Source of the DNA: a bacterium
GTDB lineage: Bacteria; Patescibacteriota; Minisyncoccia; Phycocordibacterales; JBBTRF01
Direction of reading: 5' to 3'
NCBI GenBank assembly: GCA_037130265.1
Contig: JBAXTI010000001.1
Span: 98,092-162,091, forward strand
Length of the DNA: 64,000 bases
Below the pieces are notes generated by a model, which worked only from the letters and a program-made list of their open reading frames with translations, had not been told where the DNA came from and ran no database searches. Below, in pieces: positions 7,124 to 29,029 of the stretch (the stretch's first letter is position 1; every line of letters starts with the position of its first letter). The translations under genes and the position numbers were made by a program.

Positions 7124-7129
7124 AGAGGG

Positions 7130-7399: not shown

Positions 7400-7402
7400 G
7401 TA

Positions 7403-7784: not shown

Positions 7785-8156
7785 ATGGCTCAGGTGAGCT
7801 ATTTTCATTCATACATGACACGATCACTCGCAAAAGGACCATACGTCGCGGAGATTCTTCTCAAGAAGATCGCCGGCAAGAAGCCAGAACAAGCTGGTGT
7901 TATTAAGACCTGGGCTCGAGACAGCCAGATCTCTCCTGAAATGGTGGGATATAAGTTTGGCGTTCACAATGGTAAGGATCATATTGAAGTACTTGTCACC
8001 GAGGAAATGGTAGGTCACCGCCTCGGTGAATTTGCGCTTACCCGAAAGTTTGTACGACACGGAGGTAAGATGCAGAAGGAGCTTGAAGCCAAGAAGAAGG
8101 AGGCTGAGATCGCAGCTGCCCAGACCGCAAAGGCTACCGTGGCAGAAAAGAAATAA
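7785..8156 (+). CDS. rpsS: 30S ribosomal protein S19 (true start may be ATG 7815; Ala/Lys-rich C-terminal tail)
   Basis: [18 protein letters not shown]...[13 protein letters not shown]. Confidence 0.92.
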
Positions 8157-8182
8157 TCCTCTATCATTTTATTATTACTCCA

Positions 8183-8587
8183 ATGGTTACCGCATCACTC
8201 AACGATTATCGACAAGCACCACGAAAGGTTCGCCTTGTTGCAAACCTCGTAAAGGGCAAGAAAGTAGGGGATGCGATGAACATGCTCAACTTCCTCGTGA
8301 AGGAGGCTTCTGGTCCAATGAAGAAGCTCATTGCTTCAGCTGTGGCAAATGCCAAGACAAATTTCAATCTCTCTTCTGAAAACCTTTTCATCAAAAGCAT
8401 AGAGGTCAATGGTGGTACCATCATGAAGCGCAGTATGCCTCGAGCTCGCGGTAGTGCCTTTCCGATCCACAAGCACTCAAGTCACGTCACTTTGGTATTG
8501 GATGTCATGGTAGAGAAGCCAAAGAAGGCCGCAAAGGTAGCGAGTGCAGCAAAGGCGGCTCCAAAAACTAATAAAGACACCAAATAA
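8183..8587 (+). CDS. rplV: 50S ribosomal protein L22 (KPKKAAK C-terminal tail)
   Basis: APRKVRLVANLVKGKKVGDAMNMLNF...MPRARGSAFPIHKHSSHVT. Confidence 0.93.
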   Translation: MVTASLNDYRQAPRKVRLVANLVKGKKVGDAMNMLNFLVKEASGPMKKLIASAVANAKTNFNLSSENLFIKSIEVNGGTIMKRSMPRARGSAFPIHKHSSHVTLVLDVMVEKPKKAAKVASAAKAAPKTNKDTK

Positions 8588-8591
8588 TCAC

Positions 8592-9287
8592 ATGTCACAC
8601 GTCGTCCATCCATATGCACATCGATTGGGAATCATCCGAGACTGGAAGTCTCGCTGGTTTGGTGCTGACAAGACAAAGTACGTGGCGTACCTTAAGTGCG
8701 ACGTCACTCTTCGAGAGTATTTGGACAAGAAGCTCCGTGGTTTTTACACCGCCGGTGTAGACATCGAGCGAAATTCTAAGAACCTCCGAGTGGTCATCAA
8801 GACTTCTCGACCAGGTATGCTCATTGGTAAGAGCGGTGAGGGCGCGACCACTTTGCGAAATGACATCCTTAATTTCATCAAGAAGAACAAGCTTGCGATG
8901 CCTCCAGAGCTCAAGCTCGACATCGAAGAGGTGCGATCTCCAGAGTCAAACGCCGCTATTGTAGCGTACACTGTTGCAGAAGGTCTCGAGAAGCGACTTC
9001 CATTCCGACGTGTCATGAAGCAGACTATTGAGAAGGTGATGGCGAACCGAGACGTATTGGGAGTGAAGATTTACCTCACTGGCCGACTTGGTGGCGCCGA
9101 CATGGCCCGACAGGAAGAGCTTAAGCGTGGCCGAGTTCCTCTCCAGACCTTGCGAGCGGATGTTGATTTCAAGCGCGAGAAGGCACACATGACCTACGGT
9201 GATATCGGCATCAAGGTATGGATCTACCGAGGTGAGATCTTTGCTGAGAAGGCGAAGACCGCAAAGCCTAACCACAATCAGAACTAA
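8592..9287 (+). CDS. rpsC: 30S ribosomal protein S3
   Basis: MSHVVHPYAHRLGIIRDWKSRWF...; start chosen just after the rplV stop (the ORF track 8544 start overlaps L22). Confidence 0.92.
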   Translation: MSHVVHPYAHRLGIIRDWKSRWFGADKTKYVAYLKCDVTLREYLDKKLRGFYTAGVDIERNSKNLRVVIKTSRPGMLIGKSGEGATTLRNDILNFIKKNKLAMPPELKLDIEEVRSPESNAAIVAYTVAEGLEKRLPFRRVMKQTIEKVMANRDVLGVKIYLTGRLGGADMARQEELKRGRVPLQTLRADVDFKREKAHMTYGDIGIKVWIYRGEIFAEKAKTAKPNHNQN

Positions 9288-9298
9288 CCAACACCACC

Positions 9299-9715
9299 AT
9301 GTTACTCCCAAAGAAAGTAAAACATCGCAAGTGGCACCGAATGCGCCGAAACTACGCTAAGCCTTTCATCGAGACTCGAGGCATTGCTTTGGCGTTCGGT
9401 TCATTTGGCCTCAAGGCGATGACTCCTGCGCGAGTAACCTCAAACCAGATCGAAGCAGCTCGAAAGGTTATTGCTCGATTTGCTGGAAAGTCTGGAAAGG
9501 TGTGGATCCGTATCTTCCCAGATATGCCATATACTGCCAAGGCTGCGGAAGTGCCGATGGGTTCTGGAAAGGGTGAGCCACAGGGATACTGTGCAGAGGT
9601 AAAAGCAGGCCGAATCATCTTCGAAGTGGACGGTGTTGTCGACACCGAAGCAAAGGAGGCTCTCCGAAAGGCGGGCACCAAGCTCCCATTGAAGTCTAAA
9701 GTCATTTCACGATAA
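9299..9715 (+). CDS. rplP: 50S ribosomal protein L16
   Basis: MLLPKKVKHRKWHR...GSGKGEPQGYCAEVKAGRIIFE. Confidence 0.95.
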   Translation: MLLPKKVKHRKWHRMRRNYAKPFIETRGIALAFGSFGLKAMTPARVTSNQIEAARKVIARFAGKSGKVWIRIFPDMPYTAKAAEVPMGSGKGEPQGYCAEVKAGRIIFEVDGVVDTEAKEALRKAGTKLPLKSKVISR

Positions 9716-9720
9716 CTCCC

Positions 9721-10005
9721 ATGAAAGAAATCAAGAAAATCAGCGACAAAGAACTTTTGAAGGCCATCGATGAGAAGCGAGTAGCTTTGAAAGAATTTCG
9801 ACTTGGCTCTTCAGGTAGCAAGCTCAAGGATGTGAAGGCTGGCCGAAACCTCCGAAAGGATATCGCCCGACTTCTCACCGAAGTGTCTGCGCGAAACAAC
9901 GCCGCTCCTGTCGCCCCAGCTGCTCCAAAAGCAGTTGCTGCACCAAAGAAGGCTGTAAAGGCAAAGGTTGCTAAGGTCACTAAGACTAAGGTTGCCACTA
10001 AATAA
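9721..10005 (+). CDS. rpmC: 50S ribosomal protein L29 (with APK-rich C-terminal extension)
   Basis: Position between L16 and S17; coiled N-terminus ELLKAIDEKRVALKEFR. Confidence 0.88.
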   Translation: MKEIKKISDKELLKAIDEKRVALKEFRLGSSGSKLKDVKAGRNLRKDIARLLTEVSARNNAAPVAPAAPKAVAAPKKAVKAKVAKVTKTKVATK

Positions 10006-10010
10006 TTTCC

Positions 10011-10295
10011 ATGGAAAAGAACACAAAAATCAAAGCAGCTTCTGGTACCGCTCCTGCGGCAGTTGTTGCATCAGAGCCAAAGACCCTCACTGGTAAGGTC
10101 GTGTCTGACAAGATGAAGGACACCATCGTCGTCGCTGTTGATACTTTCAACAAAATGCCAAAGTACGGCAAGTACATGAAGAGCACCAAGCGATTCCAGG
10201 CTCACGATGCAGGTAACACCAAGAAGATTGGCGACACCGTCACTATCGTTGAGACTCGACCCATCTCAAAGAATAAGCATTTTCGAGTCATTTAA
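10011..10295 (+). CDS. rpsQ: 30S ribosomal protein S17
   Basis: KTLTGKVVSDKMKDTIVVAV...AHDAGNTKKIGDTVTIVETRPISK. Confidence 0.92.
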   Translation: MEKNTKIKAASGTAPAAVVASEPKTLTGKVVSDKMKDTIVVAVDTFNKMPKYGKYMKSTKRFQAHDAGNTKKIGDTVTIVETRPISKNKHFRVI

Positions 10296-10304
10296 TACAC
10301 TCAT

Positions 10305-10676
10305 ATGATCCAACCACGCTCAATCGTAACTATTGCAGACAACACCGGCGCGAAGATCGGACGTATCTTCAAAGTGCTTGGTAGTGCAGGGAAGCGATAC
10401 GCTCAGATCGGTGAGCTTGTGATCCTCTCTGTGCAGAAGGCAGAGCCTCGAAAGGCAATCAAGAAGAAGGATGTGCTCCGAGCAGTGGTGGTGCGACAGC
10501 GCAACCCATTCCGACGCAAGGATGGTTCTTACATCCGATTCGACGAGAATGCTGTGGTAATCATCGAGCGAGAGAAGACAGAGCCGATCGGTGGTCGTGT
10601 CTTCGGACCAATTCCTCGAGAGATTGCGGAAAAGGGTTTCCAGAAGATTGCTTCTTTGGCCCCAGAAATCGTATAA
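10305..10676 (+). CDS. rplN: 50S ribosomal protein L14
   Basis: MIQPRSIVTIADNTGAK... Confidence 0.95.
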   Translation: MIQPRSIVTIADNTGAKIGRIFKVLGSAGKRYAQIGELVILSVQKAEPRKAIKKKDVLRAVVVRQRNPFRRKDGSYIRFDENAVVIIEREKTEPIGGRVFGPIPREIAEKGFQKIASLAPEIV

Positions 10677-10698
10677 CGACACCATTAACCATACTCCA

Positions 10699-10929
10699 AT
10701 GCACGTAAAAAAAGACGAAAACGTAATAGTAATTGCCGGAAAGGACAAGGGCAAGAAAGGAAAGATCCTCAAGGCGATGCCAAAGGAGAATTTGGTATTG
10801 GTGGACGGCGTCAATGTCCAGAAGCGCCACATCAAGGCTCAGCGAAACGGGAAGAAGGGCGAGATTATCGAGAAGGCGATGCCGATTCACGTCTCAAACG
10901 TCAAGCTCGTCGAAGCTCGTAAGAAATAA
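10699..10929 (+). CDS. rplX: 50S ribosomal protein L24
   Basis: MHVKKDENVIVIAGKDKGKKGKIL (KOW motif); start set after the rplN stop. Confidence 0.9.
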   Translation: MHVKKDENVIVIAGKDKGKKGKILKAMPKENLVLVDGVNVQKRHIKAQRNGKKGEIIEKAMPIHVSNVKLVEARKK

Positions 10930-10940
10930 TTATAACTATC

Positions 10941-11522
10941 ATGAACGGAGTAAAAGAAAAGCAGAGTAAGACATTCGAGACCATCAAGGGGGCACTCGGC
11001 ATCACCAATGTGATGGAAACACCAAAGCTTGTAAAAGTGGTGCTTTCGTCTGGCATTGGTTCTGTAAAGGACAAGAAGAAGATCGAGCTCATCGCCGACC
11101 GTATGAACCGCATTGCGGGTCAGAAGGTGGTGGTGAAGACTGCGAAGAAGTCCATCGCAACCTTCAAGTCTCGAGAGGGCGACCCTGCAGGCTACCAGGT
11201 GACCCTCAGAGGCGACCGAATGGTAAACTTCCTCAACAAGCTCATCAACATCGCTCTTCCTCGAACCAAGGACTTCCGAGGTATTGCTCGAAAGGCGATC
11301 GATGAGATGGGAAACATCAATATCGGTATCCGTGAGCACACCATCTTCCCTGAGACTTCAGACGAAGAGCTCAAGGACGTCTTCGGCTTCGCGGCGACCA
11401 TTGTCACTACGGCGAAGGATGCGAAGTCGGCAGAAATCTTCTTCGAGTACCTCGGCATCCCATTTATGAAGCCTGAGGAGGAGAAGAAATTGGCAGCTAA
11501 GGGTCGAAAATCCAAGGAATAA
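10941..11522 (+). CDS. rplE: 50S ribosomal protein L5
   Basis: ...NIALPRTKDFRGI...EHTIFPE... Confidence 0.93.
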   Translation: MNGVKEKQSKTFETIKGALGITNVMETPKLVKVVLSSGIGSVKDKKKIELIADRMNRIAGQKVVVKTAKKSIATFKSREGDPAGYQVTLRGDRMVNFLNKLINIALPRTKDFRGIARKAIDEMGNINIGIREHTIFPETSDEELKDVFGFAATIVTTAKDAKSAEIFFEYLGIPFMKPEEEKKLAAKGRKSKE

Positions 11523-11531
11523 TCAAAGCAA

Positions 11532-11585
11532 GAGAGCGTGGTTTGACATCAGCAGTCCGTATTGCTAGTATGTCTCCACGCTCTC
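11532..11585 (+). promoter_or_regulatory. Hairpin (gagagcgtgg / ccacgctctc) whose loop contains a consensus-spaced promoter (ttgaca-17-tagtat) between rplE and rpsZ
   Basis: 10-bp stem flanking ttgaca (11543-48) and tagtat (11566-71). Confidence 0.5.
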
Positions 11586-11618
11586 AAAGAGCCTCATTTT
11601 TTTAATTACCAACACACC

Positions 11619-11804
11619 ATGGCGAAAACATCAGTCATCGCACGATCTCAGAAGAAACCGAAATTTTCTACTCGGATTGTTCGACGATGTTTCCGTTGCG
11701 GACGAAAGCGAGGTTTTATGCGAGATTTCGGTCTCTGCCGTATTTGCTTCCGTGAATACGCAAACGAAGGTATGATCCCAGGCATTAAAAAATCATCATG
11801 GTAA
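11619..11804 (+). CDS. rpsZ: 30S ribosomal protein S14 type Z (zinc-binding, 61 aa)
   Basis: [46 protein letters not shown]: CxxC...CxxC. Confidence 0.92.
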
Positions 11805-12190
11805 GAGATACACTCAGCGATTATATTTCAAACATCAAGAACGCCGCTGCTTCACAGAAGGAGCTCGTCACTTTGCCTTACTCGAACCTTTTGATGGCCG
11901 TCACCGACGTGCTTGAGACAGAAGGGTATGTGAAGAATACCACCAAGAAGGGCAAGAAGGGGATTAAGAGCGTCGAGATCAAATTGGTCTACGCTGGCAA
12001 CCTTGCTCGCATCCACGGTGCGGAGCGCATTTCAAAGCCTTCAAAGCGCATTTACGCTGGCTCTACCGATCTTCCTCGAGTGAAGAATGGTTTTGGTCTC
12101 ATCATCGTCTCGACCTCAAAGGGCGTCATGACCGATGTGCAGGCACGAAAGGATGGTCTTGGCGGGGAGCTTCTCTTTAAGATTTGGTAA
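11798..12190 (+). CDS. rpsH: 30S ribosomal protein S8
   Basis: [16 protein letters not shown]...GGELLFKIW; overlaps the rpsZ stop. Confidence 0.93.
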
Positions 12191-12208
12191 TTATTTAATC
12201 ATACCCAC

Positions 12209-12742
12209 ATGTCACGAATTGGAAAAAAACCTCTCGCCATCCCTGAAATGACCACTGTTACCGTGGCTGGTAAGACCGTGACCGTAAAGGGTCCACTCGG
12301 AGAGTTGGTTCGCGACATTCATCCATTGATCAGTGTTGTTATTACTGATGGCTCAGTCGTCGTGACCGCACAGAACGCCACCGCCGAGGCAAAGATGCTC
12401 TGGGGCACCTGGTCTTCACATATCATGAACATGATGGAAGGTGTTACCAAGGGCTACACTAAGAAGCTCATTGTCGAAGGTATCGGTTACAAGTCTGATG
12501 TAAAGGGCGACACTCTCGCAATGTCTCTCGGCTTTTCACACCCTGTGAACATGAAGCTCCCAAAGGGTCTCAAGGTCACTGCGGAAAAGAACCTCATCAC
12601 CATCACTGGTCAGGACAAGGAGCTCGTTGGTCAGTTTGCGGCACAGGTCCGTGCAAACAAGGTTCCTGAGCCTTACAAGGGCAAGGGTATCCGATACGAT
12701 GACGAGACCATCCGACGAAAGGAAGGTAAGAAGACTGCATAA
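12209..12742 (+). CDS. rplF: 50S ribosomal protein L6
   Basis: MSRIGKKPLAIPEMTTVTVAGKTVTVKGPLGEL. Confidence 0.93.
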   Translation: MSRIGKKPLAIPEMTTVTVAGKTVTVKGPLGELVRDIHPLISVVITDGSVVVTAQNATAEAKMLWGTWSSHIMNMMEGVTKGYTKKLIVEGIGYKSDVKGDTLAMSLGFSHPVNMKLPKGLKVTAEKNLITITGQDKELVGQFAAQVRANKVPEPYKGKGIRYDDETIRRKEGKKTA

Positions 12743-12759
12743 TCCATCATCACACCCAC

Positions 12760-13113
12760 ATGGCTACTACTAAAACACAACTTGCACAGATCACCCGAGC
12801 ACGACGCCAAAAGCGAATTCGCTCGAAGATTTCTGGTACTGCAGAATGCCCTCGCCTTGCTGTGTATCGATCAAATAAGTATGTGTACGCTCAGCTCATC
12901 AACGATGAAGCAGGGAAGACTCTCGCAGCATCTTCTTCTCTAAAGATGAAGGGCAAGATGATGGAGAAGGCAGTCATGGTGGGCAAGGAAATCGCGGAGA
13001 AGGCGAAGACTTTGAAGATTGGCAAGGCCGTCTTCGATCGAGGTGGTTTCATCTACACCGGTAAGATCAAGGCCATCGCCGACGCTGCCCGAGCCGGCGG
13101 CCTCACATTCTAA
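12760..13113 (+). CDS. rplR: 50S ribosomal protein L18
   Basis: PRLAVYRSNKYVYAQLINDEAGKTLAASSS. Confidence 0.92.
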   Translation: MATTKTQLAQITRARRQKRIRSKISGTAECPRLAVYRSNKYVYAQLINDEAGKTLAASSSLKMKGKMMEKAVMVGKEIAEKAKTLKIGKAVFDRGGFIYTGKIKAIADAARAGGLTF

Positions 13114-13120
13114 TACTTAT

Positions 13121-13834
13121 ATGGATACCAACCCAACACAATCAAACACCCCTGTAGAAGCAAAGCCAGCACCAAAGGCGGGAACTGCGCCTACTCAGCA
13201 GATTGCTCAGGCAGAAGGGAAGAATCCTCAGCCGGTTCGAAGTGGTTTCGGTGGTTTCAGCCGAGGTGGCGCACGCGGAGGTGCTTCAGCTGGCGGAGAC
13301 CGACCTCGACGTGGTCCAGCTCGAGAGCCTCGAGCAAAGCCTGAGTTTGATCAGAAGATCATCAGCATCCGACGTGTGACTCGAGTCGCAGCCGGCGGAC
13401 GACGCTTCACCTTCTCTGTAGCTATTGCTGCAGGAAACCGAAAGGGTTGGGTAGGTGTTGGTACCGGCAAGGCTGGTGACACTGCTATTGCTATCGACAA
13501 GGCAATGCGAAGTGCAAAGAAGCACATGATCAAGCTCTCTTTGACCAAAGATATGTCAGTCCCTTACGATGTTGATGCAAAGTACTGCAGCGCACGAGTG
13601 TCTATCCGACCAAACCGAGCAAAGGGTCTCGTTGCAGGTAGTTCAGTGCGAAACGTCTTGGAATTGGCAGGTGTAAAGAACGTTACTGCAAAGCTTTTTT
13701 CAGGCACAAAAGACCATTTGAATAACGCACGAGCCGCTATCAAGGCGCTCTCAGTATTTGACCCAAAGAACGTACAGCATCGATTGGTTCGACCAGCACG
13801 AGCTGCTCACACCGCAGGCACTGTAAAGGCGTAA
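13121..13834 (+). CDS. rpsE: 30S ribosomal protein S5 with about 90-aa low-complexity N-terminal extension (RGG/Gly-Arg rich)
   Basis: Core IISIRRVTRVAAGGRRFTFSVAIAAGNRKGWVGVGTGKA...; N-terminus FGGFSRGGARGGASAGGDRPRRG. Confidence 0.9.
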   Translation: MDTNPTQSNTPVEAKPAPKAGTAPTQQIAQAEGKNPQPVRSGFGGFSRGGARGGASAGGDRPRRGPAREPRAKPEFDQKIISIRRVTRVAAGGRRFTFSVAIAAGNRKGWVGVGTGKAGDTAIAIDKAMRSAKKHMIKLSLTKDMSVPYDVDAKYCSARVSIRPNRAKGLVAGSSVRNVLELAGVKNVTAKLFSGTKDHLNNARAAIKALSVFDPKNVQHRLVRPARAAHTAGTVKA

Positions 13835-13844
13835 TCCAACCCCC

Positions 13845-14285
13845 ATGCAATCACACCAAATCAACCGAATTCATAAGAACAAGATCAGCCGCCAGGTAGC
13901 GCGCGGTGGAAAGCGTGGCAAGACTGCAGGTCGAGGTACCAAGGGTCAGAACTCTCGATCTGGACGCAAGAAGCGACCAGAAATGCGAGATATCATCAAG
14001 AAGATTCCAAAGCTCCGAGGCCGAGGCCGAAATAGCTTCCTCGGTTTCCAGTTGGCGATGGTCCCTGTCAATTTTGAGGCAATCGAAAAGCACTTCTCAG
14101 CAGGGGATGAGGTCAATCCAGAGACCCTTGTTGCAAAGGGTTTGATCGAAATGTTCAAGGGAGGTTTCCCTCCAGTGAAGATTCTCGCAGAAGGCGAGCT
14201 CACGAAGAAGGTAACTGTCTCAGGCTGTGCAGTATCTGCTCCAGCTAAGGCAAAGATCGAGAAGGCGGGCGGTATGGTAAAATAA
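13845..14285 (+). CDS. rplO: 50S ribosomal protein L15 (follows rpsE directly; no L30 gene)
   Basis: GGKRGKTAGRGTKGQNSRSGRKKRPEMRD... Confidence 0.93.
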   Translation: MQSHQINRIHKNKISRQVARGGKRGKTAGRGTKGQNSRSGRKKRPEMRDIIKKIPKLRGRGRNSFLGFQLAMVPVNFEAIEKHFSAGDEVNPETLVAKGLIEMFKGGFPPVKILAEGELTKKVTVSGCAVSAPAKAKIEKAGGMVK

Positions 14286-17250: not shown

Positions 17251-17253
17251 AAA

Positions 17254-17277
17254 AGCCCTTAAAACAAGGGTTTTTTC
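17254..17277 (+). terminator. Rho-independent terminator after map
   Basis: cccttaaaacaaggg hairpin plus tttttt. Confidence 0.7.
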
Positions 17278-17290: not shown

Positions 17291-17319
17291 TTGACTTTGT
17301 AGACTCATTGTGCTATAAT
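17291..17319 (+). promoter_or_regulatory. Consensus sigma70 promoter (ttgact-17-tataat) driving the first gene of the accessory cassette
   Basis: ttgact 17291-96, exact 17-nt spacer, tataat 17314-19. Confidence 0.7.
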
Positions 17320-17377
17320 ACTCAGCAGGAAAGCACATTGACACAAGCAGACAAAAAAGCGCCTAACAGCGCCGCAT

Positions 17378-18886
17378 TTGCCCGTTTGCCGATTGGCAAT
17401 CCTCTCACGTAGTCCAACAACACAACGGGGATATTCCCCAGAAAGGTTCCTTGTGAACTCGCAGCAAAATAACGGTAGTGGTAACGGCACGGTCACGCAG
17501 GCGGTCGGCACTCAAGTGGTGCAGCCGTATGCTGTTCGGTATATTCTACTCCACATGCTTCCGCACATGGACGAGTGGGCGGCCCTCTGGATCGTCCAAA
17601 AATTCGGTGCGAAGGCTTTGCCGGGCGCCGAAAAAGCCCAAGTGCGCTTCGTCGAGCGGGTTCCGCAGATGAAGGTGGAAAACATCGAAGCGAATGGCTT
17701 CCTTTGTCTTGGCCTCGGCCTGGGTGACGGACGCTGGAGCATCGATGAGCACTGTGTAAATGTGCGGGGGAGCGATCGGCTGCCTAATGAGTGCACTGCG
17801 ACGCTCGCCGCCAAGCGGGTCGGCGAACACGCAGATCTCGCCCTCAAGCGCATACTCGACGAAGTGCTCTGGTGTGACACCCAAAGTGGTGTCCGCTACA
17901 CGCATCTCGCCGAGCTAGTGAAGCTCCTACATCGCTTCCTCAAGGGTAATTCCGCCGAGGTTATGAAATGGTTGTTTCCTGCGCTCGAGGCCATCTACAT
18001 GCAACAGGTCCTCGCCATCGCCGCTCAGACGGATGAGCCGAGCCTGTCGGACTTCTTCACTGACTATGCCAAGAAGGCGGAGGTCACGAATGAGAAGCTT
18101 ATCCAGTCGATCGAGAAGAAGATTGCGGACAGCGTCGAGAACATCGACCGCTCGGTGACAGAGTTGGCCTACGTGGTCCGCTCAATGTATCGCCAAGGTG
18201 TCTCCAAGGAAACGATCTACACGTTCTGCTCCAAGGTCTTCGAGGCCTGGGAGTTCGACCAGGTCGAATTCGATGAGGCGCTTGTTGTGGTGGATGCGTC
18301 GCCTACCTTTGCTGTCACGGTGAAGGGGAGCGAGGAATTCGAGCTCAAAGCGACGGTGGTGAGGGGCGACTCTCTCCATCTCCTGAGGGCAGCGAACTTC
18401 CGCGGCAATCGGTTGGTTGTTATCCAAAACAGCCGGGGCCAGGTGCAGATCTTCGTGAACACCAAGACGCCTGACTTCGTCACCCTCGACACGCTCGTCG
18501 GTATGGTGCGGTTGCTGGAAACAGCGCCCGCAAAGCGCAAGGTGCTCAACTGGCAGGCGATCCGGAAGACAGCAGGAGAGTTTGTTGTGCCGCAGTGGTA
18601 TTACTTCCGAGACGCTCGGCAGCTCTTCAATGGCTCCTCGACCCACCCTGCGGTGACGCCGACGGAAATCCATCTGCCCGCGATCGTGGACGCCTTGAAG
18701 CATGCCTTCCATCCTCGGCTCATTGCCAAGTGGATGCATCGCATCGGTGATCCGCTCAACCTGTTCGGTCGGAAGCCCGAGTCGGATTCGGCTGTGAAGT
18801 CGGCCGCAAGGCTGGTTGCCCAGGTGGTGCAGAGCGACCTCGGGCCTGCCCTCGATGGTGCGCCGCCGGCTGACACCGCGGCCTAG
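17378..18886 (+). CDS. Hypothetical protein, GC-rich (ORF from TTG 17378; more likely start ATG 17555, about 443 aa)
   Basis: Long ORF with protein-like hydrophobic periodicity; GC and codon usage (CGC/CGG/GCG/CCG) differ from neighbours; motifs HMDEW, GLGLGDGRWSIDEH; no family recognised. Confidence 0.6.
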   Translation: MPVCRLAILSRSPTTQRGYSPERFLVNSQQNNGSGNGTVTQAVGTQVVQPYAVRYILLHMLPHMDEWAALWIVQKFGAKALPGAEKAQVRFVERVPQMKVENIEANGFLCLGLGLGDGRWSIDEHCVNVRGSDRLPNECTATLAAKRVGEHADLALKRILDEVLWCDTQSGVRYTHLAELVKLLHRFLKGNSAEVMKWLFPALEAIYMQQVLAIAAQTDEPSLSDFFTDYAKKAEVTNEKLIQSIEKKIADSVENIDRSVTELAYVVRSMYRQGVSKETIYTFCSKVFEAWEFDQVEFDEALVVVDASPTFAVTVKGSEEFELKATVVRGDSLHLLRAANFRGNRLVVIQNSRGQVQIFVNTKTPDFVTLDTLVGMVRLLETAPAKRKVLNWQAIRKTAGEFVVPQWYYFRDARQLFNGSSTHPAVTPTEIHLPAIVDALKHAFHPRLIAKWMHRIGDPLNLFGRKPESDSAVKSAARLVAQVVQSDLGPALDGAPPADTAA

Positions 18887-18944
18887 TCGCCAGTCTGCTT
18901 GTTGAAAATTCGGTAGAGCGTTTCGTACGCTCACACACACGAAG

Positions 18945-18973
18945 CCCAGGTTCAACACCTGGGTTTTCTTTTT
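18945..18973 (+). terminator. Rho-independent terminator
   Basis: cccagg-ttcaaca-cctggg plus ttttcttttt. Confidence 0.7.
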
Positions 18974-19014
18974 GCATTTTCTAAAGCGTATTTTGTTGCT
19001 ACAATAGAAGTACT

Positions 19015-21306
19015 ATGGCAGAACGTCCTAAGGCCCCAGAATCATTGACGACGAAATTTAACGCGGTAAACAACTCAGAACAGCTCTGCGCTGCTTTAGA
19101 CGCGATTCCAGCCACGACAACTTTTTTGATCACCGACGTGCCACGTGGTCAGGATATTGCACCAGGTGACAAGGGGGCGGTTATTAAATTGGTACAGCAA
19201 CTTTTTGAATTTGCCGATGCCTCCACGATGCGTACCGATTCGGATATTACTGGCCGAACTTCTTTCCTCGAACAGTTAATTAAGGAAAGCGTCATCGAAG
19301 ATGGTGAAGAAGCACTCAGTCTCATAAAAGCAATTCAACGAGCGATGCTTAGTGAATTTCCGGAGTATGGAGATGGAGCAGTGTCTGGACAGCCAACTTC
19401 TCCGACCCCAGGCGTACCGCAGCCGACTCCAGGCGAAGTCCTGGTTTTGCCAGCGGCATTTGAATTCAATGATGTGGCAAGGGACGCTCTGGGGGCTTTG
19501 GGTTGGCCAGTAGAAATGATTGATCGATTGACTCCTGAAAAAGCCGAGAAGATATTGAAAGAACAAAAGCCTTATGTTGTTTTGAAAAAGGTGCCGGCAG
19601 CTCCTAAGGTGGCGCCGACTGTTCCACCCCAACCCACTCCAAAAGCACGTCCCTCGGCTCAAAAACCAGCCGCACCTAGTGCGCCAGCCGTTCTACTGAC
19701 ACCGAAAGGTCAGGCAGCTGCTGATCTTTCGAGACTTTTGCCTAAAAAGCCAGAAGTTGTTGTTGCGGCTGCGGCTACATCTGCGACAGGCGCGCCTGCG
19801 GCCCCTGGCATTGAAACTATTGCGACCGTCTTTGACAGCCCGGAATTTCGCGCGTTCATCGCGAAAACACCGAATGCTCAGGAACTTATGTTGAGGCAGG
19901 ACATGGCCGAGATCGGTTTGTATAAAAAAGCTTTTGAAATAAAAGACAAGTTGGCCACTGACCTGTATGTGCTTGCCAACGGCGCAATCAAGGGCGACTT
20001 CCTTCTTGATTTTGAGAACTCCGCTTCGAATCTGCCAAAAAACGGCAAAGCGGAATTTCAGAAGTATGTAGATGCTGAGGCGCTCGAGCGACCAGAACAG
20101 CTGTTGAATCTCGCCACTCAGCTCGAGACACGACAGGTTTTAGAGAAAAATATCGGTACTGCAAAGGCTGAGTTTGAGCGTCTTGGTGGGAAAGATCTCT
20201 TTGATAAGGCAGAACGTGAGGCTGCTGAAATGAAGCAGCACCTTGAGCGCGCTCACGAGAGCACTCGCCGCGACTCGTTGGTGGGATATGTGCCACACGG
20301 TCTGCATCTCGCTTACCTGAGGTTGTCACATTGGGTGTATGAGCGGTGGGCCGGATGGGAGGGGCAGACCGAAGCTACAGTGAAAGCGGATTTTGAACAG
20401 CAGCGAAAGGATTTCTTGATTAAACACCCGGAAGCCACGCTCACGCCATCAGAAAGATCTGATCTAAACAAGATTACTCAGAATGAAATCGTGAAGCTTG
20501 CTGGCCTCAAAGAGCATCAAAAATTAGGGGAGAGAATGGTGGAGGTTTCGGAGTGGGGTGTATCCCGTGAGAAATTGAAGGGGGGCAGCGTTAAGCTCGG
20601 TCTCGGCAGTCTCACTAGCTATAGTCCGTCGTGGTGGACTGCACATCCTGATATTGCCCGTGAGTTAGACGCGGTGAACGGTCGGCTTGCTGATATTCGT
20701 CAGAGGAAGCAGACGATCGAGCAGGCAGAAAAAAATCTTGCGGACATCACTGCAAGCTTTGAGACGATCCGCACTTCGGTATATGCTGAATTGCCACCGA
20801 CTATTGCATTGGTTCGATATGCCCAGGTCCAGATCAAAAATACCCTCACTTCCTTTACGGCGGATACGGCAGTGGAGGATCTGCAGAGAATTTACGATTA
20901 CGCCATCTTCCTCGGCGAGAATCAGCGTCAGAGCTCTGATGTTGGAAAAAATACAGGCAAGAGTGCTTTTGCTCTAATGAATACCGCTGAGGTCCGTGTT
21001 GCTGAGAACAAAATCCATGAAGCCATCGTCGCCCAATGGGGGAGGCAGGTACTCGACGTTTTTGCAAAGACTAATTTGAATAAGAAGGGTGCAGGTGCCG
21101 AAATGGAAAAGACGATCAAGGCACTATTGAAGAAGGAGGCGATCGGACAGTACAGAAATGAGGACGAAAAGATCGCTGTCGTGAAAGCTCTTCTTGTTGA
21201 GGCTTTCAAAAAAATCGATCCGGCTAAGGGCGATGGTCAGGAGCGGCGTTTGGTACTCATGGGTGTGATGATTAATTGCGGTCTGTTGAAGCCAGGTGAA
21301 AAATAA
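19015..21306 (+). CDS. Hypothetical 763-aa protein with Pro/Ala-rich linkers and a long predicted helical/coiled region
   Basis: Extended -10 (TGcTACAAT) upstream; linkers PTSPTPGVPQPTPGE and APKVAPTVPPQPTPKARPSAQKPAAPSAPA; no NTPase or other known motifs. Confidence 0.65.
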   Translation: MAERPKAPESLTTKFNAVNNSEQLCAALDAIPATTTFLITDVPRGQDIAPGDKGAVIKLVQQLFEFADASTMRTDSDITGRTSFLEQLIKESVIEDGEEALSLIKAIQRAMLSEFPEYGDGAVSGQPTSPTPGVPQPTPGEVLVLPAAFEFNDVARDALGALGWPVEMIDRLTPEKAEKILKEQKPYVVLKKVPAAPKVAPTVPPQPTPKARPSAQKPAAPSAPAVLLTPKGQAAADLSRLLPKKPEVVVAAAATSATGAPAAPGIETIATVFDSPEFRAFIAKTPNAQELMLRQDMAEIGLYKKAFEIKDKLATDLYVLANGAIKGDFLLDFENSASNLPKNGKAEFQKYVDAEALERPEQLLNLATQLETRQVLEKNIGTAKAEFERLGGKDLFDKAEREAAEMKQHLERAHESTRRDSLVGYVPHGLHLAYLRLSHWVYERWAGWEGQTEATVKADFEQQRKDFLIKHPEATLTPSERSDLNKITQNEIVKLAGLKEHQKLGERMVEVSEWGVSREKLKGGSVKLGLGSLTSYSPSWWTAHPDIARELDAVNGRLADIRQRKQTIEQAEKNLADITASFETIRTSVYAELPPTIALVRYAQVQIKNTLTSFTADTAVEDLQRIYDYAIFLGENQRQSSDVGKNTGKSAFALMNTAEVRVAENKIHEAIVAQWGRQVLDVFAKTNLNKKGAGAEMEKTIKALLKKEAIGQYRNEDEKIAVVKALLVEAFKKIDPAKGDGQERRLVLMGVMINCGLLKPGEK

Positions 21307-21745: not shown

Positions 21746-24502
21746 ATGAATCCCGGTCCTGAAGCGTTGCACACCCCTGAGCAAGAGCTCGCTTTTTTGC
21801 GTGAGCAGGTGTCGCAGAAGGAGCGCGAGCTTCGCGAGCGCGGGGAGGCGCAGCCCCTGCAAGAGCGGGTGATGAAGGAAAAGCTTGTCGAATACCAGGG
21901 GCTTCCGACTGAAAAGGTGCTCGCCCCAGATCATCGTCTCACTCCGGCAGCGTCTGAGGCGATCGTGCTGAATATTGCTCCCGAAGCACATGACGAAAAG
22001 ATGGCGGAGCTCCTCGCTGTCCTTCAAAAGCATGGTTTGAAAAACGCCCTCGATGTCGTTGAAAAGTTGAAAAATCCGCACCTCGAGGACGATTTTCATC
22101 GCTTTGTAATCCAATACATCAAGGCCGGCCATCGCGTTGATCAAATGAATCCAAAAGAAGCGATTTCCAAGGCGTTGAAAATGACATTGTACGAGATCGC
22201 ACTTCCAGAGCGTGACGGTGAAGCGCCAGAAAAGTCGCTCAAGGAGCTCGTGTCTTCGATGGAGCAGTTTTACTCCGGTATGTCTTCCGTCGCCGATGAT
22301 GACGACACTTCTGCGCACTACTTCACTATTGAGCTTGCTGTTTCCAATTATAGTGACGAATTCGTATTTTATATGGCGGTGCCGGATACGAAGCGAGATT
22401 TGTTTGAGAAGCAGATTTTGGGTATTTTTCATAACGCACGCATCACTGAAAAGAATGACGACTACAACATCTTCTCTGAGAAGGGGGTCGTGGCTGGCTC
22501 GGCGATAGGGTTGGACAAGAAGCCAGCACTGCCGATAAAAATGTATGACCAGTTTGATCACGATCCACTCAATGTTATTCTGAACACATTTTCAAAGATC
22601 AAGCGCGACGGCGAGGGCGCGGCACTTCAGATAGTGTGCATGCCGGTAAAAGACGACTTTTATTTGAAGCGATATCGACGAGCCATCGAACGTATCGAGA
22701 AGGGAGTGAAGACAAAAGACGCGATCGACTTTCCTGACACTTTTTTCGACCACTTTAGCCACATTTTCAAGGGTTCAACTGCGCCAAAAAAGCCAAAGGA
22801 AGGCGAAAAATCAGACATCCGTGTGGATGATGCGGCGATTGAGGAGATCAAGCGAAAGCTCGAAAGTCCGACCATGCTCACCAATGTCCGTCTGATGGTG
22901 TCAGCTGATACCGACACCGCGGCAGAGCGTATTTTGAGCGACATGGAGTCGGCGTTCAATCAATTCCAAAACACACAAGGTAATCGCTTCACTTTCGAGC
23001 GCATGAAGAAGGGTAGATTGCAGAAATTTGTCGATGCGTTCGCGTATCGTCTGTATGACGAGGATACGAAATTGGCATTGAGTCTTCGTGAGCTCACTAC
23101 GGTGATGCATTTACCGGCGACCGTCTTGAAATCGGCGCCGCAACTAAAGATTTCTAAGGCAGGTACCGCACCTGCGCCGCTTGATTTGCCGAAGGGAGGT
23201 ATCTTGCTGGGCGTGAATGAATTCCGCAACATGAAGACGGATATCCACATGACTCCGGAAGACCGCCTTCGCCACTTCTATGTTATTGGTCAGACTGGTA
23301 CTGGTAAGACGAGTTTGTTGAAGAATATGATCGTGCAGGATATCAAAAATGGCGACGGTGTCTGCTTCATCGATCCGCATGGCAGCGATATTCAGGATAT
23401 TCTCGCGAAGATTCCGAAGGAGCGCTACGAAGACGTTATCTATTTCGATCCGGCATACACCGAGCGACCGATGGGTTTGAACATGCTCCAGTACGATCCT
23501 CGCTTCCCAGAGCAGAAGACCTTTGTGGTCAATGAAATGCTCTCTATCTTCAACAAGCTCTTCGATATGAAGACGGCGGGTGGTCCGATGTTTGAGCAGT
23601 ATTTTCGTAATGCCGTGCTTTTGACTATCGACGATCCGTCTTCTGGCGGGACGTTGCTCGATGTGTCACGTGTGTTGTCGTCGAAGATTTTCCGCGAGCA
23701 AAAATTGCTGAAATGTACCAATCCAGTAGTGACCCAATTCTGGAGAGAGGTGGCGGAGAAGGCGGGTGGGGAGTCGTCTTTGGCAAATATCGTGCCGTAT
23801 GTGGTGAGCAAGTTTGATACATTTTTGAGTAACGACATCATGCGGCCGGTGATCGCACAGGAGAAGTCGACCTTCAATTTCCGTGAGATCATGGATACCA
23901 AGAAGATTTTGTTGGTGAATTTGTCGAAGGGTCGCTTGGGCGATATCAATGCCAATTTGATCGGCCTTATTTTGGTGGGCAAGATTTTGATGGCCGCTTT
24001 GTCACGCGCGGATTCGCTCAATGGGCAGGCAGGAGCGCCGCAGATGCCGCCATTCTATCTGTATATTGATGAGTTCCAGAATGTGACCACCGATTCGATC
24101 TCGGTTATCCTGTCTGAGGCACGAAAGTACAAGCTCAGTTTGAATATTGCACACCAATTCATCGCGCAGCTCCAAGAGGGGATTAAAAATTCTGTGTTTG
24201 GCAACGTCGGATCGATCGCGGCGTTCCGCGTTGGCGCTGAAGATGCGGAGTATTTGGAGAAGCAGTTTGCGCCGGTATTTACGGCCAAGGACAGCATGAA
24301 TGTCGACAATTATCAGGCATACGTGAAGCTGTTGGCTGGTGGCCGGCCGGTGAAGCCGTTCAGCATGCAACTCGTCGCACCGCAACCCGGCCGGCCGGAT
24401 CAGATAGAAAACCTCAAGCAGCTTTCGTACATGAAATTCGGCCGCAATAAGGCCGATGTCGAAGCCGAGATTTTATTAAAGTATCAGAAAAAGAACGCAT
24501 AA
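21746..24502 (+). CDS. P-loop ATPase of the HerA/FtsK-VirB4/VirD4 (DUF87-type) superfamily with an about 480-aa acidic N-terminal extension and no TM segments
   Basis: Walker A GQTGTGKT, FIDPHG motif, Walker B FYLYIDEFQNV, SLNIAHQ motif. Confidence 0.75.
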   Translation: MNPGPEALHTPEQELAFLREQVSQKERELRERGEAQPLQERVMKEKLVEYQGLPTEKVLAPDHRLTPAASEAIVLNIAPEAHDEKMAELLAVLQKHGLKNALDVVEKLKNPHLEDDFHRFVIQYIKAGHRVDQMNPKEAISKALKMTLYEIALPERDGEAPEKSLKELVSSMEQFYSGMSSVADDDDTSAHYFTIELAVSNYSDEFVFYMAVPDTKRDLFEKQILGIFHNARITEKNDDYNIFSEKGVVAGSAIGLDKKPALPIKMYDQFDHDPLNVILNTFSKIKRDGEGAALQIVCMPVKDDFYLKRYRRAIERIEKGVKTKDAIDFPDTFFDHFSHIFKGSTAPKKPKEGEKSDIRVDDAAIEEIKRKLESPTMLTNVRLMVSADTDTAAERILSDMESAFNQFQNTQGNRFTFERMKKGRLQKFVDAFAYRLYDEDTKLALSLRELTTVMHLPATVLKSAPQLKISKAGTAPAPLDLPKGGILLGVNEFRNMKTDIHMTPEDRLRHFYVIGQTGTGKTSLLKNMIVQDIKNGDGVCFIDPHGSDIQDILAKIPKERYEDVIYFDPAYTERPMGLNMLQYDPRFPEQKTFVVNEMLSIFNKLFDMKTAGGPMFEQYFRNAVLLTIDDPSSGGTLLDVSRVLSSKIFREQKLLKCTNPVVTQFWREVAEKAGGESSLANIVPYVVSKFDTFLSNDIMRPVIAQEKSTFNFREIMDTKKILLVNLSKGRLGDINANLIGLILVGKILMAALSRADSLNGQAGAPQMPPFYLYIDEFQNVTTDSISVILSEARKYKLSLNIAHQFIAQLQEGIKNSVFGNVGSIAAFRVGAEDAEYLEKQFAPVFTAKDSMNVDNYQAYVKLLAGGRPVKPFSMQLVAPQPGRPDQIENLKQLSYMKFGRNKADVEAEILLKYQKKNA

Positions 24503-28330: not shown

Positions 28331-29029
28331 TTATTCGCTCAATACGAATTCATAACAATAGCGGTCGCCTAGCACTCCGCAACTTTTTGCATTAGGAAAC
28401 TGTTCCATGAAGATTTCAGAGGCAGAATTTTCAAAAAATACTTTGAGATAGAAGATGGGTTTTTCGGAAATAATCGCTAATCTTTCCTGGTAACTTTTTC
28501 CATCGAGTGGATCTGTTGGAATTTTACTAATATTTTTTGGTTCAAGTTCGGATAGTGATTGTGGAAGGCGTCCATTGCTGTCAGAATATAAAATTGTTGC
28601 AAGGTTTAGGGTTTTTACATCTGATTTCCTCTTGTCGTCTCTTGTCTTCATCTGTAATCTCTGTTCAGCTTCATCTGCACTGGTTTCCTGTCCCTGTCGG
28701 ATCGATGTCGTTGAAGGGGTCATTGTTACTGCCTTGAAAATTACAGAGAGTAAAATGGTCCCAATGACACCAAACATAATTAATAACGTAAGCCAATTAG
28801 TCCACCTTGCTGCGGGCGGTAGTGGACTAATTGTGGACTCTGTTGCCATCTTTTTGTATCTAAGTATTCTGAATAAGATATATAAAAGGAAGACTGGTAT
28901 GGAGCCGAAGAAGACCAGAGTTGACCAAAGTCCGGGAATGACTGAAACACCCCGTGCTCTGAATTTTTTTGCATCTTGATGGACCCATGTTGCCAGGCAG
29001 ATGTTGATTATGAAGTAGAGTAGTTTCAT
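28331..29029 (-). CDS. Membrane protein (3 TM) with pseudopilin-like C-terminal domain
   Basis: TM N-terminus; C-terminus LATILYSDSNGRLPQSLSEL...IPTDPLDGKSYQ resembles the GspG/pilin globular domain, without a prepilin leader. Confidence 0.5.
   Translation of the reverse strand: MKLLYFIINICLATWVHQDAKKFRARGVSVIPGLWSTLVFFGSIPVFLLYILFRILRYKKMATESTISPLPPAARWTNWLTLLIMFGVIGTILLSVIFKAVTMTPSTTSIRQGQETSADEAEQRLQMKTRDDKRKSDVKTLNLATILYSDSNGRLPQSLSELEPKNISKIPTDPLDGKSYQERLAIISEKPIFYLKVFFENSASEIFMEQFPNAKSCGVLGDRYCYEFVLSE

Follow-up and report, generated by a model that had tools for sequence, protein, structure and literature searches.

Location and gene model

The gene studied here (NCBI locus tag WCO79_00635, 'hypothetical protein') is encoded on the forward strand of the window, which is the whole 64-kb stretch of DNA that was analyzed. 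It lies 3' of the ribosomal-protein cluster, between map and a block of genes common to the related Patescibacteria loci examined: a hypervariable large protein, a small protein, a T4CP-like DUF8128 ATPase, and ndk. The coding sequence (17453-18886) begins with GTG and specifies 477 amino acids, as does the NCBI gene model, and a ribosome binding site (GAAAGG, 17441-17446) lies ahead of the GTG. A first-pass annotation had placed the start at an ATG (17555) behind a 170-nt leader. However, the MNSQ/MNSE N-terminus and a near-invariant histidine (His34), both encoded 5' of that ATG, were kept among orthologs, and the sequence 5' of the GTG contained non-triplet indels. This pattern points to GTG 17453, and neither TTG 17378 nor ATG 17555, as the translation start. 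Because the start is placed at 17453, the leader is about 127-133 nt long. The His/Asp-rich N-terminal peptide motifs quoted in the first-pass annotation were present.

The dN/dS ratio between orthologs was 0.13-0.21 for the coding sequence, suggesting that the fast evolution of this gene proceeds under purifying selection. No transmembrane segment was found in the 477-aa protein and no paralog in the 64-kb window, and the product is predicted to be a soluble, two-domain protein.

Promoter, leader, repeats and terminators

All of the regulatory features described here are predicted on the forward strand. The left edge of the cassette is the intrinsic terminator of map (AAAAGCCCTTAAAACAAGGGTTTTTT, 17251-17276), identified from sequence, which was nearly invariant in all type-A loci. 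It was missing from the loci without the gene, where map was followed by 14 nt and then the next gene. Downstream of it is a predicted strong sigma-70-type promoter (17291-17319), TTGACT-17 nt-TATAAT with an extended -10 TG, in which 11 of 12 positions match; ATTGACTTT and the TATAAT were invariant across six aligned loci, and transcription is predicted to start near 17326. The non-coding 5' leader (17320-17452) contains invariant blocks, a hairpin (GGGGA-TAT-TCCCC, 17425-17439), and the ribosome binding site. Identity to orthologs was 66-85% in the promoter and leader versus 37-73% at fourfold third positions of the coding sequence, a difference indicating that the leader is kept above the neutral rate and selectively conserved.

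The possibility that the leader is a riboswitch or a known RNA was rejected. It had no Rfam match at E ≤ 1, RNAalifold found no covariation in it, and its single-sequence fold was unremarkable compared with shuffled sequences (z = -0.45). A scan of the whole window for known RNAs returned tmRNA and tRNAs only, and scanning metagenome contigs with the leader pattern returned only the contig already known. A small hairpin at about 17388-17401, noticed by eye, showed a single T-A to A-T exchange, not enough evidence for a structure.

The gene is bracketed by a 10-nt inverted repeat, with the left arm (ACAAGCAGAC, 17343-17352) in the leader and the right arm (GTCTGCTTGT, 18893-18902) starting 7 nt past the stop codon (6 nt between). 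There was an exact copy on either side of the gene in the window and in four other loci (L001, L004, L005, and L014), and in a fifth (L015) the right arm had one mismatch. No copy was found in the loci without the gene, nor elsewhere in the window or the other fetched loci. Downstream of the right arm, the alignment showed a 3'-UTR hairpin (GAGCG-TTTCGTA-CGCTC, 18916-18932) kept in the window, L001, L005, L006, L014, and L015, and this was followed by the predicted intrinsic terminator of the gene (18941-18977), an 11-bp stem with a T-run. The next gene (start codon 19015) has a separate TACAAT promoter region 3' of this terminator, and its upstream region (TACAAT...ACTATGGCAGAA) was similar to that of the two outgroup loci, L019 and L020. 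Judged from these features, the gene appears to be a self-contained monocistronic cassette with its own promoter, leader, bracketing inverted repeat, 3' hairpin, and terminator, set off from map by the terminator of the latter. An integron cassette would be an ORF without a promoter, followed by an attC site and close to an integrase. The gene does not resemble one, as it has a conserved promoter of its own (11 of 12 positions) and an intrinsic terminator, the 10-nt repeat is not attC-like, and no integrase was noted among the neighboring ORFs.

Comparison of related loci

Eight genus-level related lineages carried the gene at the same place with the same promoter and leader. No trace of it was found in two sequenced close lineages, represented by three loci (L016/L017 and L018) in which SecY was 90-95% identical, or in two outgroup Parcubacteria/Taylorbacteria loci (L019 and L020), and in all of these the next gene came directly after map. 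The gene is thus best described, on this comparison, as an insertion relative to an ancestral arrangement of map and next gene. The insertion is old, because eight lineages share its position, promoter, and leader, and because synonymous sites among the orthologs were near saturation (pS 0.46-0.71).

Orthologs of the gene were 49-79% identical, compared with 85-95% for the flanking genes. In the tree of flanking genes, L016, which does not have the gene, was nested among genomes that do (199 of 200 bootstraps), and L004 and L005 shared 96% identity in both the DUF8128 ATPase and ndk, against no more than 51% in the gene itself. The phylogeny of the gene conflicts with that of its flanks, and the incongruent identities suggest that the cassette was exchanged among relatives by homologous recombination. 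Fast evolution together with the tree conflict argues that this is an accessory cassette, which would have been inserted and then exchanged.

Presence of the gene co-varied with a particular N-terminal form of the neighboring large protein. In genomes without the gene this protein has a long N-terminus, and the idea that the extension is a fused or decayed copy of the gene was rejected, as BLASTP, tblastn, and hmmsearch --max all returned nothing.

These comparisons also bear on whether the unit bounded by ACAAGCAGAC and GTCTGCTTGT is or was a mobile element, either recombinase-dependent or a MITE-like passenger, in which case the repeat would mark the termini of the element and would not be an mRNA feature. 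The repeat brackets the coding sequence at conserved positions in six lineages and occurs in gene-bearing loci only, and the presence/absence polymorphism and incongruent phylogeny are compatible with such an element. However, the empty loci also lack the conserved promoter, the map terminator, and the gene's own terminator, none of which falls within the repeat-bounded unit, so the inserted segment would be larger than that unit. In addition, neither a transposase nor an integrase was seen in adjacent ORFs and no target-site duplication was seen at the junctions, the repeat occurred at no other place in the sequences searched, and all copies found were at one chromosomal site. We consider a mobile element of this kind distinctly unlikely.

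Base composition and codon usage

The first-pass annotation had described the gene as visibly GC-richer than the ribosomal genes, and the measurements bear this out. It ranked first of 60 genes for both GC and GC3, with a GC of 0.591 and a GC3 of 0.747. The 59 other ORFs in the window averaged 0.504 (sd 0.037) and 0.556 (sd 0.079), respectively, so that the values of the gene correspond to z scores of about 2.3-2.4. When the 64 kb were scanned in 1.4-kb sliding windows, GC peaked at 0.591 at 17451, exactly on the gene, and reached 0.58 in 4 of 1252 sliding windows. The reported contrast in arginine codons was also found: CGC and CGG made up 85% in the gene, whereas CGA made up 73% in the ribosomal-protein genes. 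The latter have a strong CGA/CCA bias of their own, so a comparison with them overstates the foreignness of the gene. Relative to the 45 non-ribosomal genes, the main differences were in CGG (44% vs 8%) and ACG (54% vs 24%). The description of the gene as compositionally foreign holds for GC, GC3, CGG, and ACG, but not for its codon-usage distance from the gene pool, which was ordinary (rank 19 of 60), or for its dinucleotide signature. The latter was typical, with a delta* of 0.063 (mean across the window, 0.077; rank 454 of 626).

GC3 was above that of neighboring genes in eight of nine other loci containing orthologs or distant family members. The equally hypervariable neighboring gene was not GC3-rich. 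Since family members from unrelated hosts also exceed the genes around them in GC3, the excess seems to be a family trait rather than a scar of transfer. The persistent GC3 excess does not track similarity to ribosomal-gene codon usage. The suggestion that high GC3 reflects weak expression was rejected: GC3 was weakly and positively correlated with similarity to ribosomal-gene codon usage (Spearman rho +0.35), on which scale the gene was mid-range.

Composition had been the basis for proposing recent horizontal acquisition, in which the gene would have come from a GC-richer, unrelated donor and would not yet have adapted to the host genome. Such an origin would account for the top rank in GC and GC3, the unusual CGG and ACG usage, the absence of the gene from some very close relatives as well as outgroups, and the presence of its own promoter and terminator. 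It is largely refuted by the shared position in eight lineages and the near-saturated synonymous divergence; the first-pass annotation had itself named a homolog at a syntenic position in related genomes as a result that would speak against it. A foreign source is also difficult to reconcile with the native dinucleotide signature and ordinary codon distance, with a GC3 excess that persists in orthologs and in distant members in other hosts, and with the named family members found, which were all Patescibacterial except for one metagenome-assembled genome (MAG) labelled Gammaproteobacteria. Recent acquisition from an unrelated donor is very improbable. What is supported of the original proposal is the insertion into the ancestral arrangement and the conflict with the flanking tree; the acquisition appears to be neither recent nor from a foreign source.

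Predicted fold and sequence family

An AlphaFold2 (AF2) model built from a 60-sequence alignment had a pLDDT of 90.3 and a pTM of 0.85, and the first model agreed with it. An N-terminal DHH domain and a C-terminal DHHA1-type domain are joined by a linker in the model, and its structure matches include DHHA1 and C-Ala domains. By predicted structure and motif register, the protein is assigned to the DHH/DHHA1-superfamily phosphoesterase fold. The DHH-like catalytic domain (residues about 28-148; 17534-17896) contains H34, H38, D40, E41, G87, D98-E99-H100, and D142. Next comes a stretch of about 130 aa that is helical throughout (residues about 150-282; 17900-18298), an insertion that the secondary structure of the model with pLDDT 90 places between the two domains of DHH type. 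Short relatives of 306-370 aa matched the profile in two stretches only, which flank this insertion. The DHHA1-like substrate-binding domain (residues about 285-430; 18305-18742), placed by the model and by conservation, contains R353 and N393-G394-S395-x-T397-H398 at the place of the GGGH motif.

Sequence searches did not recover this assignment. The target protein had no match to Pfam DHH (PF01368), DHHA1 (PF02272), or UPF0160 even at E ≤ 10, and nine close homologs and ten distant relatives also had no match to Pfam DHH or DHHA1 at E ≤ 1 to E ≤ 10. Searches of the protein against Pfam, NCBIfam, PADLOC, PHROGs, and the PDB (phmmer and profiles A1, A3, and A6) gave nothing meaningful; the matches of profile A6 to EGFR covered a 42-residue stretch only and were dismissed as chance. 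Six of 37 short-form relatives (306-370 aa) matched the ChrB C-terminal domain (PF09828) over the N-terminal DHH-like domain, one of them above the gathering score, and neither the window protein nor its close relatives did. We are not aware of any connection between ChrB_C and phosphoesterase activity.

No more than 10-11 relatives came from a word-indexed homolog search, also when the 60-sequence profile was used, and a search for related loci with profile A1 returned two distant loci only. The family was recovered by exhaustive profile search, which gave 1352 representatives at E ≤ 1e-3 and 208 at E ≤ 1e-30. This is a large family without a Pfam or NCBIfam match. Its taxonomic spread rests on a handful of named members, all annotated as 'hypothetical protein', from Candidatus Parcubacteria, Candidatus Taylorbacteria, and the Patescibacteria group; the locus in the MAG labelled Gammaproteobacteria was like the one from Uhrbacteria. 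Distant family members were found in unrelated gene neighborhoods, and on this basis a general functional link between the gene and the DUF8128 system was rejected.

Active-site motifs

Conservation was counted over 157 family representatives. H34 was kept in 147, D40 in 146, D142 in 154, R353 in 148, N393 in 148, and G394 in 150. In place of the DxD of motif I the protein has H38-M-D40-E41, which with H34 forms H-x3-H-x-D-E; the second Asp (D40) is retained, and position 38 was His in 136 representatives and Asp in 11. In motif II, Gly87 stands where the Asp would be, as in 142 of the representatives. Asp87 occurred in just seven, all of which had Ala41, and Ala41 and Asp87 were always found together. 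Motif III reads D98-E99-H100 rather than Asp-His-His, with Glu or Asp at position 99 in 147 representatives, His in 4, and H100 kept in 137. The motif IV Asp is present as D142 in W-C-D-T-x-S-G, an equivalence based on fold position and the D-T-G-like context. In the C-terminal N393-G394-S395-S-T397-H398, the N, G, and S were nearly invariant and His398 was found in only 88 of 157, so that equivalence to GGGH is putative. The motif II Asp is a metal ligand in characterized DHH enzymes, and as it is missing here a loss of activity is possible.

The H38/E41/G87/(E or D)99 set was found in 133 of the 157 representatives and the canonical D38/A41/D87 set in 7. A minority of the family has canonical ligands, and the two ligand sets swap as a unit. 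This suggests that Glu41 takes over the role of the lost motif II ligand and that the predicted site still binds a divalent metal. The metal-dependent hydrolase site proposed in the first-pass annotation was retained as a prediction, but it does not appear degenerate, as had been thought, because its ligands are kept across the 157 representatives with correlated swaps.

The DHH/DHHA1 superfamily includes RecJ, NrnA, PAP phosphatase, PggH, GdpP, and MYG1. The nucleotide and nanoRNA enzymes (NrnA, PAP phosphatase, PggH, and GdpP/Pde2/DhhP) were 3-12% identical to the target in sequence. Compared with NrnA-type enzymes, it has HxDE for DxD, Gly for the motif II Asp, and DEH for DHH, and adds the helical insertion of about 130 aa between the domains. 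It differs from RecJ and from archaeal RecJ-like/GAN/Cdc45 proteins in having no OB-fold or other extra RecJ domains and in its catalytic motifs, and, in contrast to the RecJ group, no replication or repair genes are found in its gene context. To our knowledge, MYG1 is the only characterized DHH branch that shares the H-x4-H-x-D-E form of motif I. MYG1 (UPF0160) is a 3'-5' RNA exonuclease. Alignment with the solved human MYG1 chain (24ah_A) by hhalign covered 56-58 columns only (E 0.006, 6% probability), with H34, H38, D40, E41, the motif II GG, and (F/Y)D(E/H)H in register, and phmmer against the PDB with the target returned no MYG1 chain. The motif II Asp (DVGG) and a true DHH are both present in MYG1, whereas the target has neither the DVGG Asp nor the first His of DHH, and the C-terminal domains of the two proteins could not be aligned by sequence. 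At the place where RNA-acting DHH members have His, RecJ has Gln (PMC6582341). The target has a His (H398) at the putatively equivalent position, like the RNA-acting members and unlike RecJ.

The altered motifs could also mean that the protein has lost catalysis and uses its DHH fold as a scaffold, as do Cdc45 and the C-Ala domain of AlaRS, to bind nucleic acid or a partner such as the hypervariable protein or the T4CP-like ATPase. The lost motif II Asp, the changes in DxD and DHH, the large helical insertion, and the co-variation of the gene with the N-terminal form of the neighboring protein are all compatible with this. However, 137-154 of the 157 representatives, which are very divergent, still have the putative ligands H34, D40, E41, H100, and D142 as well as the N-G-S motif. 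The H/E/G/E and D/A/D/H sets are also exchanged together, as would be expected of a site coordinating metal and not of a decayed one. MYG1, which also has an H-x-D-E motif I, is an active exonuclease (PMC6582341), and distant family members were found in unrelated neighborhoods. We regard a dead scaffold as unlikely.

Proposed explanation and significance

Taken together, the data favor, with a probability of roughly 0.6, a DHH/DHHA1-superfamily phosphoesterase carried on an old accessory cassette that was inserted in one genus-level lineage and then exchanged, with a GC3 excess that looks like a family property. Within that lineage, the cassette would have been inserted between map and the block of hypervariable protein, small protein, DUF8128 ATPase, and ndk, and the gene would have persisted since then as an accessory gene that changes rapidly under purifying selection and is swapped among relatives by homologous recombination. 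The enzyme is predicted to hydrolyze phosphoester bonds, either in nucleotides or in short single-stranded nucleic acids, and to release mononucleotides; pAp, dinucleotides, nanoRNA, and ssDNA or ssRNA ends are the candidates for its substrate. The GC3 excess would accompany the gene family in several hosts instead of being the fading mark of a recent foreign transfer.

A more ambitious version, which we consider a long shot, is that the cassette is a self-regulated exchangeable unit of a new kind in CPR bacteria. The conserved leader and inverted repeat would loop the mRNA or bind a dedicated regulator, and would thereby control expression. The enzyme with its rewired metal site, the adjacent T4CP-like ATPase system, and adk/ndk would together degrade nucleic acids from the host cell to nucleotides, for which these episymbionts are auxotrophic. 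If true, the fast evolution and presence/absence polymorphism would represent adaptation to different hosts.

These findings are not very surprising to a specialist, and the function given to the protein is a proposal. The locus does provide a clean natural case of an accessory gene inside a syntenic block that ranks among the most conserved in a bacterial genome, at the end of the ribosomal-protein cluster, and it illustrates that a persistent GC3 excess need not signal recent transfer. Pfam and NCBIfam do not recognize the family of this protein, which numbers at least 1350 cluster representatives and can now be placed in the DHH phosphoesterase superfamily. The family yields the testable hypothesis that a swap of carboxylate and imidazole ligands preserves the metal site. 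CPR bacteria do not synthesize their own nucleotides and depend on scavenging, and new nucleases or phosphoesterases in their small genomes are candidates for a role in nucleotide scavenging.

Composition of the DHH-like gene

The coding sequence at 17453-18886 (+), which encodes a divergent predicted phosphoesterase of the DHH/DHHA1 superfamily (WCO79_00635), lies in the most GC-rich stretch of the 64 kb, a stretch whose high GC the first-pass annotation had flagged. Mean GC of the window was 50.6%; the top 1.4-kb sliding window was at 17451 with a GC of 0.591, and only 4 of the 1252 sliding windows reached a GC of at least 0.58. The gene itself ranked first of 60 ORFs in both GC (0.591) and GC3 (0.747), with z of approximately 2.3-2.4. 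The contrast in arginine codons with the ribosomal-protein genes also held: CGC (41%) and CGG (44%) in this gene versus CGA (73%) in the ribosomal-protein genes. The ribosomal-protein genes carry a strong bias of their own (CGA, CCA, TCT/TCA, and ACC/ACT), and the 45 other, non-ribosomal genes of the window were much nearer to the DHH-like gene in codon usage than the ribosomal genes were. Its codon-usage distance from the gene pool ranked only 19 of 60, and in dinucleotide relative abundance, at rank 454 of 626, its signature did not stand out from the window. The compositional deviation is real, yet statistically modest. Low similarity to ribosomal-gene codon usage does not account for the GC3 excess; rho between the similarity index and GC3 was +0.35.

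Other parts of the window were also compositionally distinct. The EF-Tu and ribosomal-protein genes at 2776-14285 had a very strong, unusual codon bias that set them apart from the remaining window (CGA 73% of Arg, CCA 54% of Pro, and TCT+TCA 70% of Ser). Four ORFs, at 28331-29029 (-), 42659-43090 (-), 53436-53972 (+), and 30392-31408 (-), deviated more than the DHH-like gene by codon usage; three were low in GC (0.40-0.43, GC3 0.34-0.40), and the GC-rich one (GC 0.578, GC3 0.70) had the largest codon-usage distance of the window.

Conserved position and insertion history

The window lies on a 464-kb contig of a Patescibacteria MAG, whose SecY and L2 showed 90% identity or more to the corresponding proteins of a 'Patescibacteria group bacterium'. 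Eight lineages had homologs of the DHH-like protein (43-82% identity) in precisely this place, after the adk-map pair that closes the ribosomal-protein cluster and before genes for a large protein, a small protein, a DUF8128/T4CP-like ATPase, ndk, and a sortase; for L015 the contig was too short to display the neighbours of its homolog. This shared position contradicts the recent horizontal transfer that had been proposed.

Two sequenced close lineages had no copy of the gene, namely L016/L017, with identities to the window of 95% for SecY and 93% for the ATPase, and L018. It was likewise missing from two outgroups, L019 and Candidatus Taylorbacteria L020, whose ATPases were 64-68% identical. 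In all of these loci the large protein directly followed map, and no remnant of the gene, its leader, or its flanking repeat was found. Over 1800 homologs of the ATPase were found, in Paceibacterota and other Patescibacteria MAGs, and the best 120 had an identity of at least 59%. Because the block without the gene occurs in close lineages and outgroups and the ATPase is widespread, the gene-less block is ancestral and the DHH-like gene is an insertion.

GC3 of the orthologs was 0.62-0.76, compared to 0.56-0.60 for their neighbours, with a single exception (L006), and the excess was kept despite an identity of just 37-48% at fourfold sites for the more distant pairs of alleles. The same held for three distant members of the family, which have unrelated gene neighbourhoods and hosts with 47-53% GC: their GC3 was approximately 0.10 above that of their neighbours. 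The GC3 excess therefore appears to travel with the gene family and not to be a decaying donor signature.

Proposed exchange among relatives

Within the genus, flanking genes were 85-95% identical and the DHH-like proteins only 49-79%. L004 and L005 shared 96% identity in the ATPase and ndk versus 51% in the DHH-like protein, and in a tree built from four flanking genes (adk, map, ATPase, ndk), L016, which lacks the gene, was nested among gene-bearing genomes in 199 of 200 bootstraps. dN/dS was 0.13-0.21 for the DHH-like gene, and 0.02-0.06 for map, the ATPase, and ndk. The simplest reading is that this is an accessory gene whose constraint is purifying, yet relaxed or diversifying. Homologous recombination via the conserved flanks may have shuffled both its divergent alleles and the empty state among relatives. 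Of the recent foreign acquisition put forward in the first-pass annotation, the inserted, horizontally exchanged accessory unit remains, and neither the recent timing nor the foreign origin does.

The large protein downstream (19015-21306; 763 aa, containing a low-complexity region rich in Pro and Ala but no known domain) was equally hypervariable, with 47-58% identity among genomes whose housekeeping genes were approximately 90% identical. Its N-terminal form co-varied with presence of the DHH-like gene: the N-terminal part was approximately 160 aa where the gene was present, and approximately 560 aa of unrelated sequence in L016 (6186-9653) and L018 (5604-8885). The outgroup counterparts (L019, 4991-8677; L020, 5516-8575) were 1019-1228 aa. 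The DUF8128 and VirD4/TraD-like ATPase (21746-24502; 918 aa) was found in the block map, large protein, small protein, ATPase, ndk, adjoining the ribosomal-protein cluster, in every related locus examined, and also matched PHROG 5156 (E 5e-82) and PADLOC mad8 (E 3e-12). According to a preprint (10.1101/2025.01.22.634366), most VirD4-like genes of the CPR are located away from virB4 and were possibly co-opted for another role. Elsewhere in the window, a tmRNA gene at 33675-34069 (-) (Rfam, 87 bits) was overlapped on the opposite strand by a mechanically listed ORF (33931-34665, +), which may start later or be spurious.

Gene model and non-coding elements

The NCBI model in this MAG is 477 aa and starts at GTG 17453, six bases downstream of GAAAGG. 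The ATG at 17555 had been preferred earlier, but the N-terminus MNSQ/MNSE common to the orthologs and the near-invariant His34 are encoded upstream of it, and non-triplet indels separate the orthologs upstream of the GTG. A site resembling a promoter, which matches at 11 of 12 positions and has an extended -10 (17291-17319), a terminator with an 11-bp stem (18941-18967), and the terminator of map (17251-17276) indicate that the gene is monocistronic, with a leader of approximately 127 nt rather than the 170 nt first assigned.

The leader occupies 17320-17452. Promoter and leader were 66-85% identical to those of orthologs, versus 37-73% for neutral sites, so that the leader is conserved well beyond the neutral level. 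They contained invariant blocks and an invariant GGGGA-TAT-TCCCC hairpin immediately upstream of the RBS; Rfam had no family that matched, and the aligned sequences gave no covariation. A 10-nt inverted repeat flanked the gene, with its left arm ACAAGCAGAC at 17343-17352, 5' of the coding sequence, and its right arm GTCTGCTTGT, also 10 nt, at 18893-18902, beginning 7 nt past the stop codon. Loci L001, L004, L005, and L014 carried the pair in the corresponding places, as did L015 with one mismatch; there was no other copy within the window and none in the loci without the gene. A conserved 3' hairpin, GAGCG-TTTCGTA-CGCTC, followed at 18916-18932; it and the right arm both lie in the 3' stretch 18887-18932. 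These elements could represent 5'-3' mRNA pairing, paired protein-binding sites, or insertion relics.

Fold, family, and active site

Sequence searches of Pfam, NCBIfam, PADLOC, PHROGs, and PDB with the protein gave no match, and no transmembrane segment was predicted. A word-indexed search found only ten relatives. When 1.84 billion representatives were searched exhaustively with a profile, 1352 matched at E≤1e-3, and 208 at the stricter threshold of E≤1e-30. Named members were 'hypothetical protein' entries from Candidatus Parcubacteria, Candidatus Taylorbacteria, and Patescibacteria group, one fetched locus was from Candidatus Uhrbacteria, and none of the sampled members matched Pfam DHH. 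A first AF2 model from 10 sequences (pLDDT 73.7) had structural matches only to the DHH superfamily. In the second, from 60 family members (pLDDT 90.3, pTM 0.85), a DHH-like domain (residues ~28-148) and a DHHA1-like domain (residues ~285-430) are separated by ~130 residues of helical insertion, and the tail is disordered.

For the short-form relatives (P0077-P0157 of alignment A6, 306-370 aa), the profile matched only the parts flanking the helical insertion, and many ended in a Cys-rich motif, C-x4-C-x4-C...RC. Pfam ChrB_C (PF09828) matched 6 of 37 short-form relatives over the DHH-like domain, a hint that the fold of ChrB_C is perhaps itself DHH-like. Around the family member, L011 (CAYYFM010000073.1, labelled uncultured Gammaproteobacteria) and L012 (Candidatus Uhrbacteria) had near-alike ORF layouts, agreeing in size and order, with a PBP transpeptidase and a DUF4178 protein in the L012 set; the Gammaproteobacteria label given to the L011 MAG may have arisen from an error in binning or classification.

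Conservation of the residues at canonical catalytic positions was strong among the 157 family representatives: H34 in 147, D40 in 146, E41 in 140, H100 in 137, D142 in 154, R353 in 148, N393 in 148, and G394 in 150. In contrast to canonical DHH enzymes, the family has H-x3-H-x-D-E as motif I, Gly in place of Asp in motif II, and D-E-H as motif III. Seven members had the canonical set of P-D-x-D-A, Asp at motif II, and usually D-H-H, and Asp87 accompanied Ala41 without exception among the 157. A carboxylate ligand of motif II thus appears to have moved to position 41, while His and acidic residues were exchanged at positions 38 and 99. Such a correlated swap would be expected only with selection on the metal site, which suggests that this site is under selection. 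What was suggested earlier to be a degenerate metal-dependent hydrolase site is more aptly seen as a coherent variant site, given how well its putative ligands are conserved.

MYG1, which is active as a 3'-5' RNA exonuclease (PMC6582341), also has motif I in the H-x-D-E form, and hhalign against the solved human MYG1 chain placed all these motifs in register, in a weak match (E 0.006). By analogy with the closest folds, the likeliest candidate substrates are nucleotides that bear a phosphomonoester, or else short oligonucleotides in single-stranded form. The gene product represents a new branch, with rewired catalytic motifs, of a well-known enzyme superfamily.
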